This document shows, in pieces, positions 6,001-9,000 of a stretch of DNA of 12,431 nt. Each line of letters opens with the position of its first letter. Within the stretch, counting starts at the first letter, position 1. Position numbers: made by a program. The stretch is from NCBI GenBank assembly GCA_044359815.1, contig JBIKLL010000080.1:1-12431 (forward strand). The letters are read 5' to 3'. The stretch is from Pseudobdellovibrionaceae bacterium (GTDB lineage: Bacteria; Bdellovibrionota; Bdellovibrionia; Bdellovibrionales; Bdellovibrionaceae).

Positions 6001-9000
6001 GACGTTTGATAAGCTAACCGAATCAAAAGAGGTTCGTTTTGGTCGCAGTGGTCTGTACCTGTTTCATAAATTTGATTTGCCTTTTCAGGGCGAGCACGTT
6101 GAATTTTCGATAAAAATTGCCGACCACAATCCCTTTCGCGAATTAGCTGGTGTCGGAACTGTCCGATGGGTTCGCGATCAGGATACTAATGGCCTGACTC
6201 GTGGGATTGGGGTTGAGATCGTTCATCTGAAGCCTGATTCATTACCCAGTTACTGCGCCTGGTTGGATAAACAAAATTTTAAAGCCTCTGTACCTAAATA
6301 AATTTTCCTGACAGATCTTAAATTGAAAGTTGATTTACAATAACCTGCCCGTTTTTTGACTAATTTGAATTCTAAAAAACTCCCCACTCTGGCGGCCGCT
6401 GTCCGTGTGAAATCCCGCCGGTGATCCGATTCCCGAACCCATTTATATGTCTGTTAGTCATTAAACGCTGTTGTCCTTGGCATTTTGTTTGCCCAGCAAT
6501 CATTAACAAAGGACAAACACATGAACCTAAAATCATTTTATCTGGATAGGCGAAAACTCAAACCTCTAGAAATCGAAATCAGTTTGCTGCCGGGATTACC
6601 AGGCATTCAATTTTTGGGTTTACCAGATCAGATCGTTCGCGAAAGTGCAGTCAGGATCAAATGCGCCCTGAAAAACAGCGGATTTTCAATCCCTGCCAAT
6701 CAAACTATTTTGGTGAATCTGCGCCCCCAACATTTACGCAAAAACTCGCGGGGCCTGGAGCTGGCCGTGGCTCTGGGGATTGTTTGGGCCACAGAGCAGG
6801 CTTCGCCCTATGCGATGGATGAGACCACATTTATCTACGGAGAGCTTTCGTTAAACGGTTTTGTGTTAAAACCTGATGATCTGGAAACACATTTGCTGAA
6901 AAATGATTTCAAAATAATTACGGGCATCAGCGCCCAACCCAGCCGCCATCAGTTGCTGCAGGTGACTGAGCTGAAGGACAAATCCCCCCTGCCAATCAAT
7001 GAAAGGCTGCAGCCTAAGGATTTTCAGATCAGACCCAGAAATTTTGATAATTTTAAATTCAGTGATGAACAAAGAAGGTTGATCGAAATTATTTGCGTCG
7101 GCAAACATCCCATTTTGTTGGCGGGACCTGCTGGCAGCGGAAAAACCTTTTTAGCAAAATCGACTCATTCATTTTTACCGCCTTTAAAGCCCGACGAGAT
7201 TTTTGAAATCAGCGAAACCCTGCTGATGACACCGGATCAAATCAACTGGAGGCCTGTGATTGCACCTCATCACAGTATACCTCCGGCGGCTTTTTTGGGT
7301 GGTGGTATACAAAATTTTATTGGCGAACTGGCCAAAGCCCACAAGGGGGTTTTGATTTTGGATGAATTGCTGGAATTTAAGCCAGCGATTTTGGAATCCC
7401 TGCGCGAAATCCTAGAGACTTCTCAGTTTACGGTTTCACGCAGTGGAATTGCCAAACAGTACCCGATTGAAATACTGCCCATTGCGACCACAAATTTATG
7501 TCCCTGTGGCAGCTACACACCGGTTGCCCGCCCTTTAAATTGCAGATTTTCGGCTACCCGTTGCAAAGGTTATTTGCAAAGGCTCAGTGGACCGCTGGTG
7601 GATCGATTTCATTTGATTCACTACACGGATCAACACATTCAGAAAAAACATTTGGGTTTAAGAATTTCCGAAAAGCTTGAGCAAGTTTATCAGTACAAGG
7701 CGTCCATTAACCACGAAATGGAGTTAGAGTATTTGGCGCAAGAGCTTTTTGATAAATGGATTTTTACATCAGAGCGCCGAAAGCTAGCTGCCAAAAAAGT
7801 AGCAGAAACTTTGGCACATCTGGACTTTTCCCCGGAGGTAAAGCTGAATCACGTCGAGGAAGCCCTTGATTTGTGTGTAAAAAACTTTGATCGATTAAAC
7901 GAGCCTTAGCGCTTAAATCGGGCCATGACAGTTGATGATAGGGACTCTGACATTGATTGACATCAAAGATTCAGAAAGCTAGATTTCGGGCTTAACACTG
8001 ACCCACGGGGTGACGTAGTCAAGTGGTTAGGCAGCGGTCTGCAAAACCGTTTACGCCGGTTCAATTCCGGCCGTCACCTCCAATTCACGCAAAGACTCTA
8101 CAGCATTGTTGACTTCATGGGATTCGCGACTTGCGACGTAGCGGAACTACGCCTCAGTCGCTCACCCACTCGTCGCCTCGCTGTAGAGGCTTTTCGTGAA
8201 TTGGACCTGTGATTGTGGTGGAAGTTGGGCTGTCAACGTACTGCCGGTTCGCAAAAATGCCATGAAGGCATTTTTGCGCGACAGCCCCGAGCGCCCGCGA
8301 GTGGGTTGAACACAGGATGTGTGAAACCATTCCGGCCGACTCTGCCACCTGAATTAATGATGAACCTTGAAATAGTTCAGCTATCGATAATGAATTGATT
8401 CAAATGAATCGAATGACGTTCTGATTGCGACTTTGGTCGATGTTTTGTGGCAGCTACTAGACTAGATTTTTAACTGCCTTTTTCCGAAATAAACTAATGA
8501 TGATACTCATATTTCTTTCTATTACTTCTATCGCATTTGGATCTGTAGAAGATATCAATAACTACGACTCTGTAATGGGCTGGTTCGGTAGCGAAAGTCA
8601 ATGCGCCCAAACCTCTCCCGAGGAACTCGAAACTTTGTCAAGGCAATGTAAACTCTCGAACGGCAATAAATCTTTACTTGAAATAGAAAATACAATGGAA
8701 GAAGTTATATTCCAACAAGTTGCAAAAAACAGTGATGAAGCGACTCAATGTCACGCTAGATTCCTAAATGGCTATTTTAAAGATCCCAAGCTTGCTTCTG
8801 AACTGCAGCAAGTAGCTTTTGACGAATTTCAACGTGTACAACCTGTTATGTCTGAACTGGTTAAAATGCGCACATCCCTTATTGAAAAAAAACGAAAATT
8901 GATGCTGGGCACAGCACCGGGCGAGAAAGGCAACTCCGCTCGATACTTTTTCAAAAAAGAAAACGAAGTTGATGAGGAAATAAATGCAGTAAACTATGCA

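Follow-up and report, generated by a model that had tools for sequence, protein, structure and literature searches.

A palindromic repeat with a conserved core at gene 3' ends in Bdellovibrionota, probably a non-autonomous mobile element

The window, that is the whole 12,431-nt stretch of DNA that was analysed, is contig JBIKLL010000080.1 (positions 1-12,431) of Pseudobdellovibrionaceae bacterium GCA_044359815.1; G-labels below denote the compared genomes and C-labels the contigs of this one. ARAGORN detected one tRNA gene in the window, tRNA-Cys(gca) at 8009-8082 on the forward strand (Rfam RF00005, 64 bits), with the discriminator U at 8079 and an encoded CCA at 8080-8082. A sigma-70-like promoter match on the same strand (TTGACA-17-TAGATT, 7957-7985, 10/12 in the consensus scan) lies 24 nt 5' of the gene and is weak, because two such sites were found against 1.2 expected in shuffles.

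The initial annotation described a hairpin at 8079-8205 welded to this tRNA, and the ARAGORN call, the inverted repeat and the fold all uphold it. The palindromic element, R1, occupies 127 nt of the forward strand (8079-8205; covariance model 104.8 bits, E 1e-22) and consists of a left arm (8079-8104), a conserved core (8105-8179) and a right arm (8180-8205). According to the inverted-repeat search and the sequence, the arms are 26 nt long, 92% complementary and 75 nt apart. The stem begins at the discriminator U73, one base ahead of the encoded CCA; the opening four nucleotides of the left arm are the U73-CCA of the tRNA, and the right arm, which holds the T-run CTTTTCG, ends in TGGA and pairs with this UCCA. 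Alignments of 10 and 99 copies define four blocks in the core, ATTGTTGA (8105-8112), CTTGCGACGT (8130-8139), CGCCTCAGTCGC (8150-8161) and CGCCTC (8174-8179), as well as an apical covarying hairpin at 8133-8161. The terminator scan detected a terminator-like match, GCCTCGCTGTAGAGGC+TTTTCGTGAA, on the forward strand at 8175-8190. Folded as RNA, the element reaches -63.9 kcal/mol (z -6.35), a value as good as which was found in 0 of 200 shuffles, and folded as DNA it reaches -34.7 (z -5.52).

Downstream of the element, GTGATTGTGG (8209-8218, forward strand) matches exactly the 10 nt with which the right arm of the C75:390-515 copy ends and is possibly the stump of an older copy, although a 10-mer match could also be due to chance. 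A perfect short palindrome, CGCAAAAATGCC-ATGAA-GGCATTTTTGCG (8250-8278), is terminator-like in both directions by its sequence and fold, and the terminator scan made no call there. The forward-strand segment 8303-8349 (GGGTTGAA, 13 nt, then AAACC-ATTCCGGCCG-ACTCTGCCACC; 10 nt as in the tRNA) is a weak candidate for a degenerate duplicate of the T-arm and 3' end of tRNA-Cys, by analogy with the tRNA 3'-end copies at other tRNAs; blast found no exact 3'-end copy of tRNA-Cys of 16 nt or more. Contigs from four other lake-water runs (X5-X8; contigs only) showed 0 differences over 7500-8900 where they covered it, and no joints. No RNA run contained this stretch; in six of those listed the share was 0.05. 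The search for an empty site of the tRNA-Cys copy in 40 relatives, none of the same genus, matched only the tRNA itself. The window element has no match in Rfam 15 at E <= 1, and at or near the elements only the tRNA reaches the gathering score; at the 11 other loci of this genome, what overlaps the hairpins at E <= 5 is limited to weak sub-threshold matches.

Long-loop hairpins were detected at nine of the 34 tRNA/tmRNA genes of this genome (Asn, Arg-tcg, Leu-taa, Met on C30, Ser-tga, Asp, Ser-gct, Cys and Glu), the number reported in the initial annotation; compared to its arm lengths of 26-34 nt and offsets of 2-10 nt the values are slightly wider, with arms of 26-56 nt (at most two mismatches), starts at -1 to -12 relative to the 3' end of the tRNA and loops of 44-95 nt. 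With arms of at least 26 nt, such hairpins occur at 9/34 tRNA ends, compared to 5/587 ends of ORFs of at least 250 codons and 6/600 random sites. Six further genes (Leu-gag, Ser-gga, Val-tac, tmRNA, Arg-tct and Met on C111) carry short-loop terminator-like hairpins with arms of 19-24 nt that start 4-12 nt inside the tRNA or tmRNA. Whichever base precedes CCA, be it T (Cys), G (Glu, Ser) or A, its complement is always present in the right arm, and pairing continues into the acceptor stem for as many as 4 nt. All ten R1 copies of this genome lie behind a tRNA 3' end or a duplicate of one. Exact 16-25-nt copies of tRNA 3' ends were found by blastn-short 130-320 nt downstream of nine tRNAs; many different tRNAs are affected, and the inserts are too small to code. 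An integrative element at a tRNA gene would be expected to have a direct repeat of the tRNA 3' part at its far end, together with a tyrosine integrase. Rfam at E <= 5 gave no partial tRNA matches beside the R1 copies that are not at a tRNA.

The R1 covariance model was built from the ten copies listed in the initial annotation and returned exactly the same ten from this genome (E 6e-28 to 3e-18): C95 8079-8205, which is the window copy; C84 38554-38678; C33 47062-47187 and 47305-47448; C30 5136-5282; C122 27294-27417; C107 26397-26521; C58 8308-8432; and C75 97-217 and 390-515. Membership in the repeat family and its distribution were observed directly. The recurrence of the core in the taxonomic family stands, with the count corrected from 61 to 62 of 151 genomes (this one included), in 21 of 41 genera; in the phylum the model matches 49 of 151 genomes, in 12 of 25 families, and single genomes reach at least 21-23 matches. 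Each unit has an outer stem of 24-28 bp and a core of ~75 nt with four conserved blocks and two small covarying helices. RNAalifold reproduced the covarying stem reported earlier, with 35 pairs on the ten copies (25 with double changes) and 29 pairs on 99 copies (27 with double changes). The phylum-wide conservation of the 75-nt core exceeds what is usual for a purely selfish repeat. Plasmid and phage collections gave no R1 match, and literature searches on Bdellovibrio repeats, hairpins and intergenic sRNA, with most subscription journals outside their coverage, returned no description of the family.

The position and orientation of the copies are also direct observations, and the general rule is docking on co-directional stop codons, which the initial annotation had missed. 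For 61 of the 81 copies in other genomes, the stop codon of a co-directional gene starts -13 to +15 nt from the first stem base; as a share of copies with a long upstream ORF this is 61/71. Of 91 copies, 71 follow an ORF of the same direction and 15 one of the opposite direction, with 5 unclear. The left arm has an A-run and the right arm a T-run in 28 of the 91; 4 have the reverse arrangement and 59 have neither. An intrinsic terminator would have a GC-rich stem followed by a T-run, behind a co-directional gene; 71/91 copies are co-directional, clear A/T runs are limited to 28/91, and the ~75-nt loop is far beyond the usual. The link to tRNA, earlier thought to be perhaps special to this genome, extends to others: R1 is welded to tRNA-Met in G309 and to tRNA-Arg in G242, an R1 copy of G061 begins 2 nt past tRNA-Arg, and hairpins with a second core begin within tRNA ends in G003 and G008. 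In G064 the TAG of the arm serves as the stop codon of the upstream gene, and the G008 type has one copy behind a gene that ends in GAGTAC-TAG and further copies in three other places.

Copies within one genome have a common arm consensus and unrelated flanks. One locus was observed in the filled and the empty state: the element is present in G008 and G163, and G165 lacks 124 nt with no remnant of the stem, which indicates that the whole palindrome is the inserted unit; no clear target-site duplication was detected in this pair. At a second locus the element is present in G008, G163, G121 and G176 and absent from seven species, five of which (G165, G129, G127, G133 and G171) have a plain intrinsic terminator instead. 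Decay products were observed in G064 as derivatives without the core, with the 5' part only and with the 3' part only. The presence or absence of the unit at an orthologous locus and the decayed and truncated copies support the mobile-element behaviour proposed in the initial annotation, and the alignments agree with its description of a hairpin repeat that is non-coding, dispersed and multi-copy, its core conserved and its arms varying between lineages and from copy to copy yet remaining complementary; no transposase is adjacent. Its statement that terminal repeats are not conserved holds across lineages and fails within a genome, where the arms follow a consensus. Nor is R1 a new kind of element, since by its anatomy it belongs to the known palindromic repeats between bacterial genes (REP/REPIN, ERIC and MITEs of the Correia type), of which it represents a new variant in that conservation is found in the centre instead of at the ends.

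TA flanks were detected in G064 (8/12 copies on the left, 10/12 on the right) and G003 (11/14 left, 7/14 right) and are missing from other subfamilies; TA is itself palindromic, and these flanks may simply be part of the palindrome. One G061 subfamily has flanking direct repeats of 7, 7, 10 and 11 bp in four of eight copies. When the DNA of G064 was searched with a complete copy, only short copies of the repeat were returned, and no larger element in which the same arms enclose a coding body. No precise empty sites were found in the genera g8 and g17, where flanking genes are 73-81% identical and the intergenic DNA is unalignable.

The arms show Watson-Crick covariation and compensation in situ, both observed directly. 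Among 2055 outer-stem pairs of 99 copies, 1878 are Watson-Crick, 33 GU, 40 AC and 104 other; an independent count on 91 copies gave 53 GU-type and 56 AC-type pairs, and nearly every stem position shows all four Watson-Crick pair types. Since GU is about as rare as AC in these strictly Watson-Crick arms, complementarity is kept in DNA and not in RNA, and RNA-level selection on the outer stem was rejected from both counts. The inner helices have 48 GU against 14 AC pairs (one invariant T.G column excluded), as would be expected if the sense strand folds, either as RNA or as single-stranded DNA. In the main subfamily of G064 (12 copies, 20-nt arms) a hand count gave 23 compensated substitutions and one compensated indel versus six one-sided changes. 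Column-based compensation counts for four subfamilies were 45:4, 30:6, 16:3 and 25:18, values inflated by register shifts; copies of one genome are kin, so that the counts overstate independence. Arm divergence is 10-29% versus 4% for the core in three of the four subfamilies. Between orthologous copies, substitutions and one indel are compensated in the opposite arm; such copies differ as GCGAGCGG/CCGCTCGC versus GCGAAGCGG/CCGCTTCGC, and as CGCCCAT/ATGGGCA versus CGCCCTG/CAGGGCA.

These counts bear on the possibility that R1 is foremost a structured RNA, which we consider unlikely. Transcribed together with the tRNA or mRNA in front of it, R1 would then be a module acting in cis at the 3' end, be it a terminator, a signal for processing or stability, or an unknown ribozyme, and its spread would be secondary. 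Wobble tolerance, as expected for a structured RNA, is weakly visible in the small inner helices, and together with the core blocks conserved throughout the phylum these helices suit such a module, but the outer stem lacks it. The fixed orientation (71 versus 15) and the copies flush with stop codons or CCA would also be in line with a function at the RNA end, as would the replacement of plain terminators by R1 at an orthologous site; E. coli REPs at most 15 nt from a stop codon are reported to stall ribosomes and lower translation (PMC12306157). However, the reverse strand is the better RNA fold in 81 of 91 copies, 15 copies are oppositely oriented, truncated and internally deleted copies persist in numbers, and Rfam has no match at E <= 1.

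We suggest that R1 is probably an old, phylum-wide family of ~120-127-bp palindromes, a non-autonomous mobile element of the REPIN/MITE class with mutually re-templated arms, which forms a hairpin at gene ends. What comes and goes is the whole hairpin, lodged in one orientation and flush with the 3' end of a gene; in most genomes this end is a protein gene's stop codon, and in this one it is a tRNA CCA end or a displaced copy of a tRNA 3' end. For the mechanism of its mobility, the re-templating and the role as a terminator we infer the following. One arm would be copied from the other, holding complementarity at the DNA level, likely by replication template switching at the imperfect palindrome or by regeneration of an arm at each transposition. 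Such re-templating would explain arms that drift 2-6 times faster than the core and are yet perfect, the compensated indels, and the outermost pairs that match the last bases of the neighbour (the discriminator in a tRNA, the third base in a stop codon). The element would at the same time be the terminal hairpin of the upstream gene, a predicted terminator or 3' stabiliser; this role is probable in view of an A-rich left arm, a T-rich right arm and a co-directional upstream gene, and it would explain why copies persist in such a position and orientation. Recognition would most likely be at the conserved core.

A bolder form of this proposal, which we regard as doubtful, is that R1 and the sister cores are self-templating palindromes, the mobile unit being whatever the palindrome encloses and the copies being primed at a gene 3' end (CCA or stop codon). 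Each round would rebuild one arm from the other, with no transposase reading terminal repeats, and an arm rebuilt in this way could drift freely in sequence and swallow the last bases of the neighbouring gene. Such rounds would leave duplications of variable length, for instance the 16-25-nt copies of tRNA 3' ends, and 3'-truncated copies, and a conserved host or element protein would read the phylum-wide core alone.

Several known systems resemble the family proposed here as a mobile palindrome. REPINs have conserved ends, the REP 16-mers, around a variable spacer, and each genome that holds the repeats has a cognate RAYT, usually flanked by them. R1 is alike in being a short, non-coding, extragenic palindrome with many copies per genome, hairpin structure and long-term persistence in lineages, and differs by its conserved centre and variable arms, the absence of RAYT dependence, the fixed orientation and the docking on tRNA CCA. 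ERIC/IRU sequences are imperfect palindromes of ~127 bp in transcribed intergenic regions of enterobacteria and vibrios; compared by description alone, they share length, imperfect palindromy and location with R1, which differs by its phylum-wide core, free arms and position flush with stop codons and CCA. Correia/NEMIS elements and hairpin MITEs of the IS630/Tc1 type have TA duplications and conserved ends that match a parent IS. The size of 100-150 bp, the inverted-repeat ends, the TA flanks in two subfamilies and a possible terminator effect are similar in R1, but its arms differ at up to 7/20 positions within one genome and no parent element was found. Integron attC sites are hairpins with conserved structure and variable sequence, located right after an ORF in one orientation, with the end motifs RYYYAAC/GTTRRRY. 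The R1 hairpin is likewise right after an ORF and in one orientation, although its centre is conserved, its copies are dispersed and not arrayed, and it shows no integrase link; identity with attC was rejected, the end motifs being present in 1/91 copies. Among the REPs of E. coli, too, many are situated 1-20 nt past the nearest ORF end (PMC12306157). Template switching at quasi-palindromes perfects imperfect inverted repeats and extends the identity of the arms (PMC7202029, PMC3820800 and PMC8604942), which matches the compensated substitutions and indels of R1 and the stems growing into the gene end; such switching has been described for mutation at individual loci and in R1 would act as the standing maintenance of a repeat family.

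The likeness to REPINs raises the question of a moving enzyme, and the initial annotation guessed at a link to HUH genes, which found no support. That R1 is moved in the manner of REPINs by an HUH tyrosine transposase (RAYT or IS200-like) recognising the folded single strand is very unlikely, even though the hairpin shape would suit it and REPINs, as described in PMC3116915, also fold into hairpins as single strands, with compensatory changes between the two sides. Y1_Tnp domains occur in 57 of the 62 family genomes with R1, a correlation that indicates no dependency, as they are present in 115 of all 151 and in 58 of the 89 that are free of R1. Conversely, G003 (98% complete, at least 21 copies with common arms) has no Y1_Tnp (PF01797) at E <= 1e-5, and the same is true of G008, G014, G063 and G076, all of which carry R1. 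The one Y1_Tnp locus of this genome is on C8, a contig without R1, and the REPIN arrangement of conserved ends and variable spacer is the reverse of that in R1.

Hardly probable, too, is copying without a cut-and-paste transposase, primed by or switching template from the target's 3' end (CCA, TAA/TAG) and proceeding in the 5' to 3' direction from the left arm across the core to the right arm. It would account for junction bases common to element and target (CCA here, the arm TAG used as a stop codon in G064) and for partial copies with the left arm and 5' core, which recur on C30, at six or more loci of G003 and in G061 and G064; those of G003 are most like their own neighbour. Partial copies with the 3' part only occur too, however. 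The flanking repeats of varying length (7-11 bp) would fit, but most copies have none, and another reading of the 16-25-nt copies of tRNA 3' ends is that they are tandem tRNA duplicates that have decayed, such as a pseudo-tRNA-Met with an anticodon arm. Least probable, and rejected as contradicted at the examined loci, is that only the ~75-nt core moves and inserts into the loops of existing terminators, whose stems would be the variable arms: arms do resemble split terminators with an A-run, GC-rich stem and T-run (e.g. GGTGAAAAACGCCCAT...ATGGGCATTTTTGACC), six tRNAs here have core-less terminators with stems also reaching into CCA, and in related species plain terminators occupy this position, but unrelated loci of one genome have the same arm consensus, the empty site of G165 is free of any hairpin, and the core-less hairpins of G064 are deletions between short direct repeats within the core.

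If the reading of R1 as a mobile, re-templated palindrome is true, the predatory Bdellovibrionota carry an ancient repeat family whose construction, free arms around a conserved centre, is the opposite of that of REPINs and MITEs. The arms would be a natural record of DNA palindrome homogenisation, replicated many-fold, in which compensated substitutions and indels occur without wobble intermediates and from which template-switch correction of quasi-palindromes, long debated, could be measured in wild genomes. For annotation, R1 and its sister families break assemblies just past tRNA genes (G003), mimic microRNA precursors in Rfam scans and can provide the stop codon of the upstream gene. The strict docking on stop codons and tRNA CCA ends in one orientation would point to an unknown gene-end targeting, or to strong selection for a terminal hairpin at the end of a functional RNA.

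The window carries one copy of R1, a palindromic repeat family of ~120-127 bp, directly behind its sole tRNA gene, tRNA-Cys(gca) (8009-8082). The arms of this copy (8079-8104 and 8180-8205) form a 26-nt inverted repeat with 2 mismatches enclosing 75 nt; U73-CCA of the tRNA opens the left arm and TGGA closes the right arm. The hairpin fold scored z -6.35 as RNA and z -5.52 as DNA against shuffles, and no Rfam family matched the element. DNA contigs of four other samples have the identical tRNA-Cys arrangement, without variant. At 8175-8190 the core end GCCTCG can pair with right-arm GAGGC, giving a small hairpin followed by TTTTCG; this alternative terminator-like fold is found in the window copy and the C107 copy and is absent from those on C84 and C58.

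The initial annotation described hairpins starting inside tRNA ends of this lake-water genome (2.95 Mb, 125 contigs, 41% GC), of which the window is contig C95. We found this description to be correct, since a long-loop hairpin begins 1-12 nt inside the tRNA at 9 of the 34 tRNA/tmRNA genes, compared with 5/587 long-ORF ends and 6/600 random sites, and the covariance model built from the ten R1 copies listed there recovered exactly these ten in the genome. Six more tRNA/tmRNA genes have ordinary-looking short-loop terminators, with extended stems reaching 4-12 nt into the tRNA.

The position of R1 was surveyed in 91 copies (10 from the studied genome, 29 from 29 genomes and 52 from the comparison genomes G064, G061 and G003). 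The long ORF upstream of R1 is on the same strand in 71 copies, on the other strand in 15 and unclear in 5. In 61 of the 71 co-directional cases, all among the 81 copies from outside the studied genome, the stop codon begins -13 to +15 nt from the first stem base, most commonly at -4 to +1; therefore, R1 docks as a rule on the 3' ends of genes, which in the studied genome means the tRNA CCA. The initial bases of R1 itself, TAG, frequently serve as the stop codon in the main G064 subfamily. A tRNA 3' end precedes all ten copies of the studied genome. Five are behind real tRNAs, three behind exact 18-21 nt copies of tRNA-Ser(tga), Arg(tct) or Leu(tag), the C58 copy behind a 12-nt tail of tRNA-Met (CCCCCGCAACCA), and the copy at C75:97 is preceded by a bare CCA-like end only (GGGAAGAACCA). 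The tRNA link, earlier thought to be possibly special to this genome, is found elsewhere: the best-scoring foreign copy, in G309 from another family, opens with ACCA of tRNA-Met, a G242 copy opens with CACCA of tRNA-Arg, and a G061 copy begins 2 nt past tRNA-Arg.

The covariance search detected R1 in 62/151 family genomes (21/41 genera) and in 49/151 genomes sampled phylum-wide (12/25 families), with at least 21-23 matches in single genomes; plasmid and phage collections had no match. The blocks C-TTCGTTG, CTCCCTG-CGACGT, ACGCC-TCAGTCG and CGCCTCG are kept across all 99 aligned copies, and nearly every outer-stem position shows all four types of Watson-Crick pair. We found no description of this family in the Bdellovibrio literature.

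An RNA-maintained stem is expected to have frequent G.U and rare A.C pairs on the transcribed strand. In the outer stem of the 99 copies, G.U was as rare as A.C (33 vs 40 among 2055 pairs), and an independent ungapped count on 91 copies gave 53 vs 56, showing that the arm complementarity is a property of the DNA. The RNA fold of the reverse strand was better in 81/91 copies. The core is deeply conserved and its small helices have more GU than AC pairs (48 vs 14), which leaves room for the main rival explanation, that the R1 core functions single-stranded, as RNA or DNA.

Our main reading, in which the arms are re-templated on each other, is related to the pattern of changes in them. In three subfamilies the arms diverge from the subfamily consensus by 10-29% and the core by ~4%; in G003 the two are equal. 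Nearly all within-genome arm differences are mirrored in the opposite arm; the main G064 subfamily (12 copies) has 23 compensated substitutions and 1 compensated one-base insertion vs 6 one-sided changes. A compensated insertion (GCGAGCGG/CCGCTCGC vs GCGAAGCGG/CCGCTTCGC) and a compensated double substitution also distinguish the orthologous copies that G008, G163 and G121 carry behind the same gene. In the 20-nt G064 arm (L062-L077), two positions, 7 and 11, have all four bases among the 12 copies, with the complement always opposite, and the positions next to them never vary. Paired indels and missing intermediates are the outcome expected if one arm were copied from the other, and template switching at quasi-palindromes is reported as a process of this kind (PMC7202029, PMC3820800, PMC8604942).

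Arm-to-arm copying would also make the outermost pairs follow the neighbouring gene. In the studied genome tRNA-Cys has U in front of CCA, tRNA-Glu and tRNA-Ser have G, and the remaining cases have A; the complement of this base stands in the right arm every time, and pairing extends into the acceptor strand by as many as 4 nt. Stop codons ending in G were matched by C in the right flank in 4/4 cases in G003. R1 mirrors the gene end with its outermost 1-13 nt only, not the entire arm.

Copies within one genome have a common arm consensus at unrelated loci, so core and arms move together. At one locus, R1 is present in G008 and G163, and G165, whose flanks are 78-83% identical, is 124 nt shorter between the flanking matches (68 nt vs 192 nt) and has no trace of either arm. 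Core-only insertion into existing terminator loops was rejected at the loci examined, because the arms travel with the core and this empty site has no arm trace. At a second locus, four species have R1, and in 5/7 further species examined a plain terminator stands 20-50 nt past the stop.

The flanks follow no single pattern. Two subfamilies have TA at both ends, and in one G061 subfamily 4/8 copies lie between direct repeats (7, 7, 10 and 11 bp); no such flank features were seen outside these three. No parent element was found in G064. The proposed link to HUH genes was not supported: Y1_Tnp was detected in 115/151 genomes, yet not (E <= 1e-5) in G003, with at least 21 R1 copies. Core-less G064 hairpins are deletions between short direct repeats within the core. 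Truncated copies, above all left arm plus 5' core, are common, for instance behind the second tRNA-Met 3' end on C30 and in G061 and G064. At six or more G003 loci a partial R1 stands 4-8 nt after the full copy that it resembles most. The second copy at L099, L100, L102, L107, L108, L109 and L112, 4-20 nt behind the full one, has neither the first left-arm bases nor the right arm and is closest to its own neighbour, so it is a partial duplication made locally.

A second core family (CTCAGACAGCGGTGCTCGGCG...TCGAAGTGCCACTGGCACTTCGAACTGAAC; also given as CTCAGACA...) forms tRNA-welded hairpins in either orientation at C4:63125-63306 (Asn), C27:13447-13608 (Leu-taa), C38:1216-1339 (Asp) and C21:8995-9110 (Arg-tcg). 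Such hairpins begin inside the Arg-cct, Leu-tag, Ala-ggc and Cys tRNA ends in G003 and inside Gln and Leu-taa in G008 (2/30 tRNAs). Its mini-hairpin GAAGTGCC..GGCACTTCGAACTG is also an insert within two R1 copies (C30, C33b), so the cores are mosaics of modules. Further repeat families begin precisely at the CCA of tRNAs and interrupt the assembly in G003, where contigs stop 6-66 nt past CCA at 11/24 tRNA loci (e.g., L211, L212, L214, L222, L225, L228, L229, L232, L233; also L268). Two identical repeats are found there directly past CCA, TTATGTCC... at 5 tRNAs and GTTTCGTTCGAAG... at 4; the former occurs 8 times, always at a contig end, and on C17 spans ~75 nt ending in a tRNA-like T-arm, acceptor strand and CCA.

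In the studied genome, at least 9 tRNA genes have exact direct 16-25-nt copies of their own 3' end 130-320 nt downstream (C21, C27, C30, C33, C55, C59, C76, C84/C69, C107, C75). At three Ser loci the displaced copy is a T-arm split in the T-loop (TTCGA / 75-165-nt insert / AATCC..CCA); tRNA-Met is followed by a degenerate second tRNA-Met with anticodon arm, and tRNA-Arg(acg) by a ~217-nt tandem unit whose end is the tRNA's own 3' end. For the displaced copies there are two readings, as decayed tandem tRNA duplicates or as long target duplications. Directly before several of the copies, a conserved module (CCCCGGCTCTGGGG, variable hairpin, GGGAAGACC) stands in place of the T-arm 5' half (C76:2030-2105, C75:300-392, C59 downstream of tRNA-Val, C69:15140-15420). 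The window also has a large nested palindrome between convergent ORFs (1802-2178; arms 1802-1898 and 2082-2178, inner palindrome 2009-2101), with weak Rfam matches to microRNA-precursor models; it is a member of a highly abundant repeat family in this genome, for which blastn gave matches on over 60 contigs, many of them at contig ends.

R1 is filed under a known class, the bacterial intergenic palindromic repeats, and works like a REPIN or hairpin MITE; REPINs are reported to show compensatory changes as well (PMC3116915). Conserved ends, a cognate transposase and a parent IS, the defining features of REPINs and MITEs, were not found for R1, attC end motifs were detected in 1/91 copies, a negative attC result, and R1 is a member of no Rfam family. 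It is set apart by three traits: its centre is conserved, its strictly Watson-Crick arms would be self-correcting, and its docking on stop codons and tRNA CCA ends is oriented. On balance, we lean towards R1 being a mobile REPIN/MITE-class palindrome with re-templated arms that acts as a gene-end hairpin.

A large share of E. coli REPs is reported to have the nearest ORF end at a distance of 1-20 nt, and REPs no more than 15 nt from a stop codon to lower translation (PMC12306157). An A-run in the left arm with a T-run in the right arm was detected in 28 R1 copies, the reverse in 4, and 59 were unclear. These runs, the co-directional upstream genes and the terminators at that place in relatives suggest that R1 probably provides the upstream gene with its terminal hairpin, a predicted role that would explain the survival of copies in such a place and orientation.
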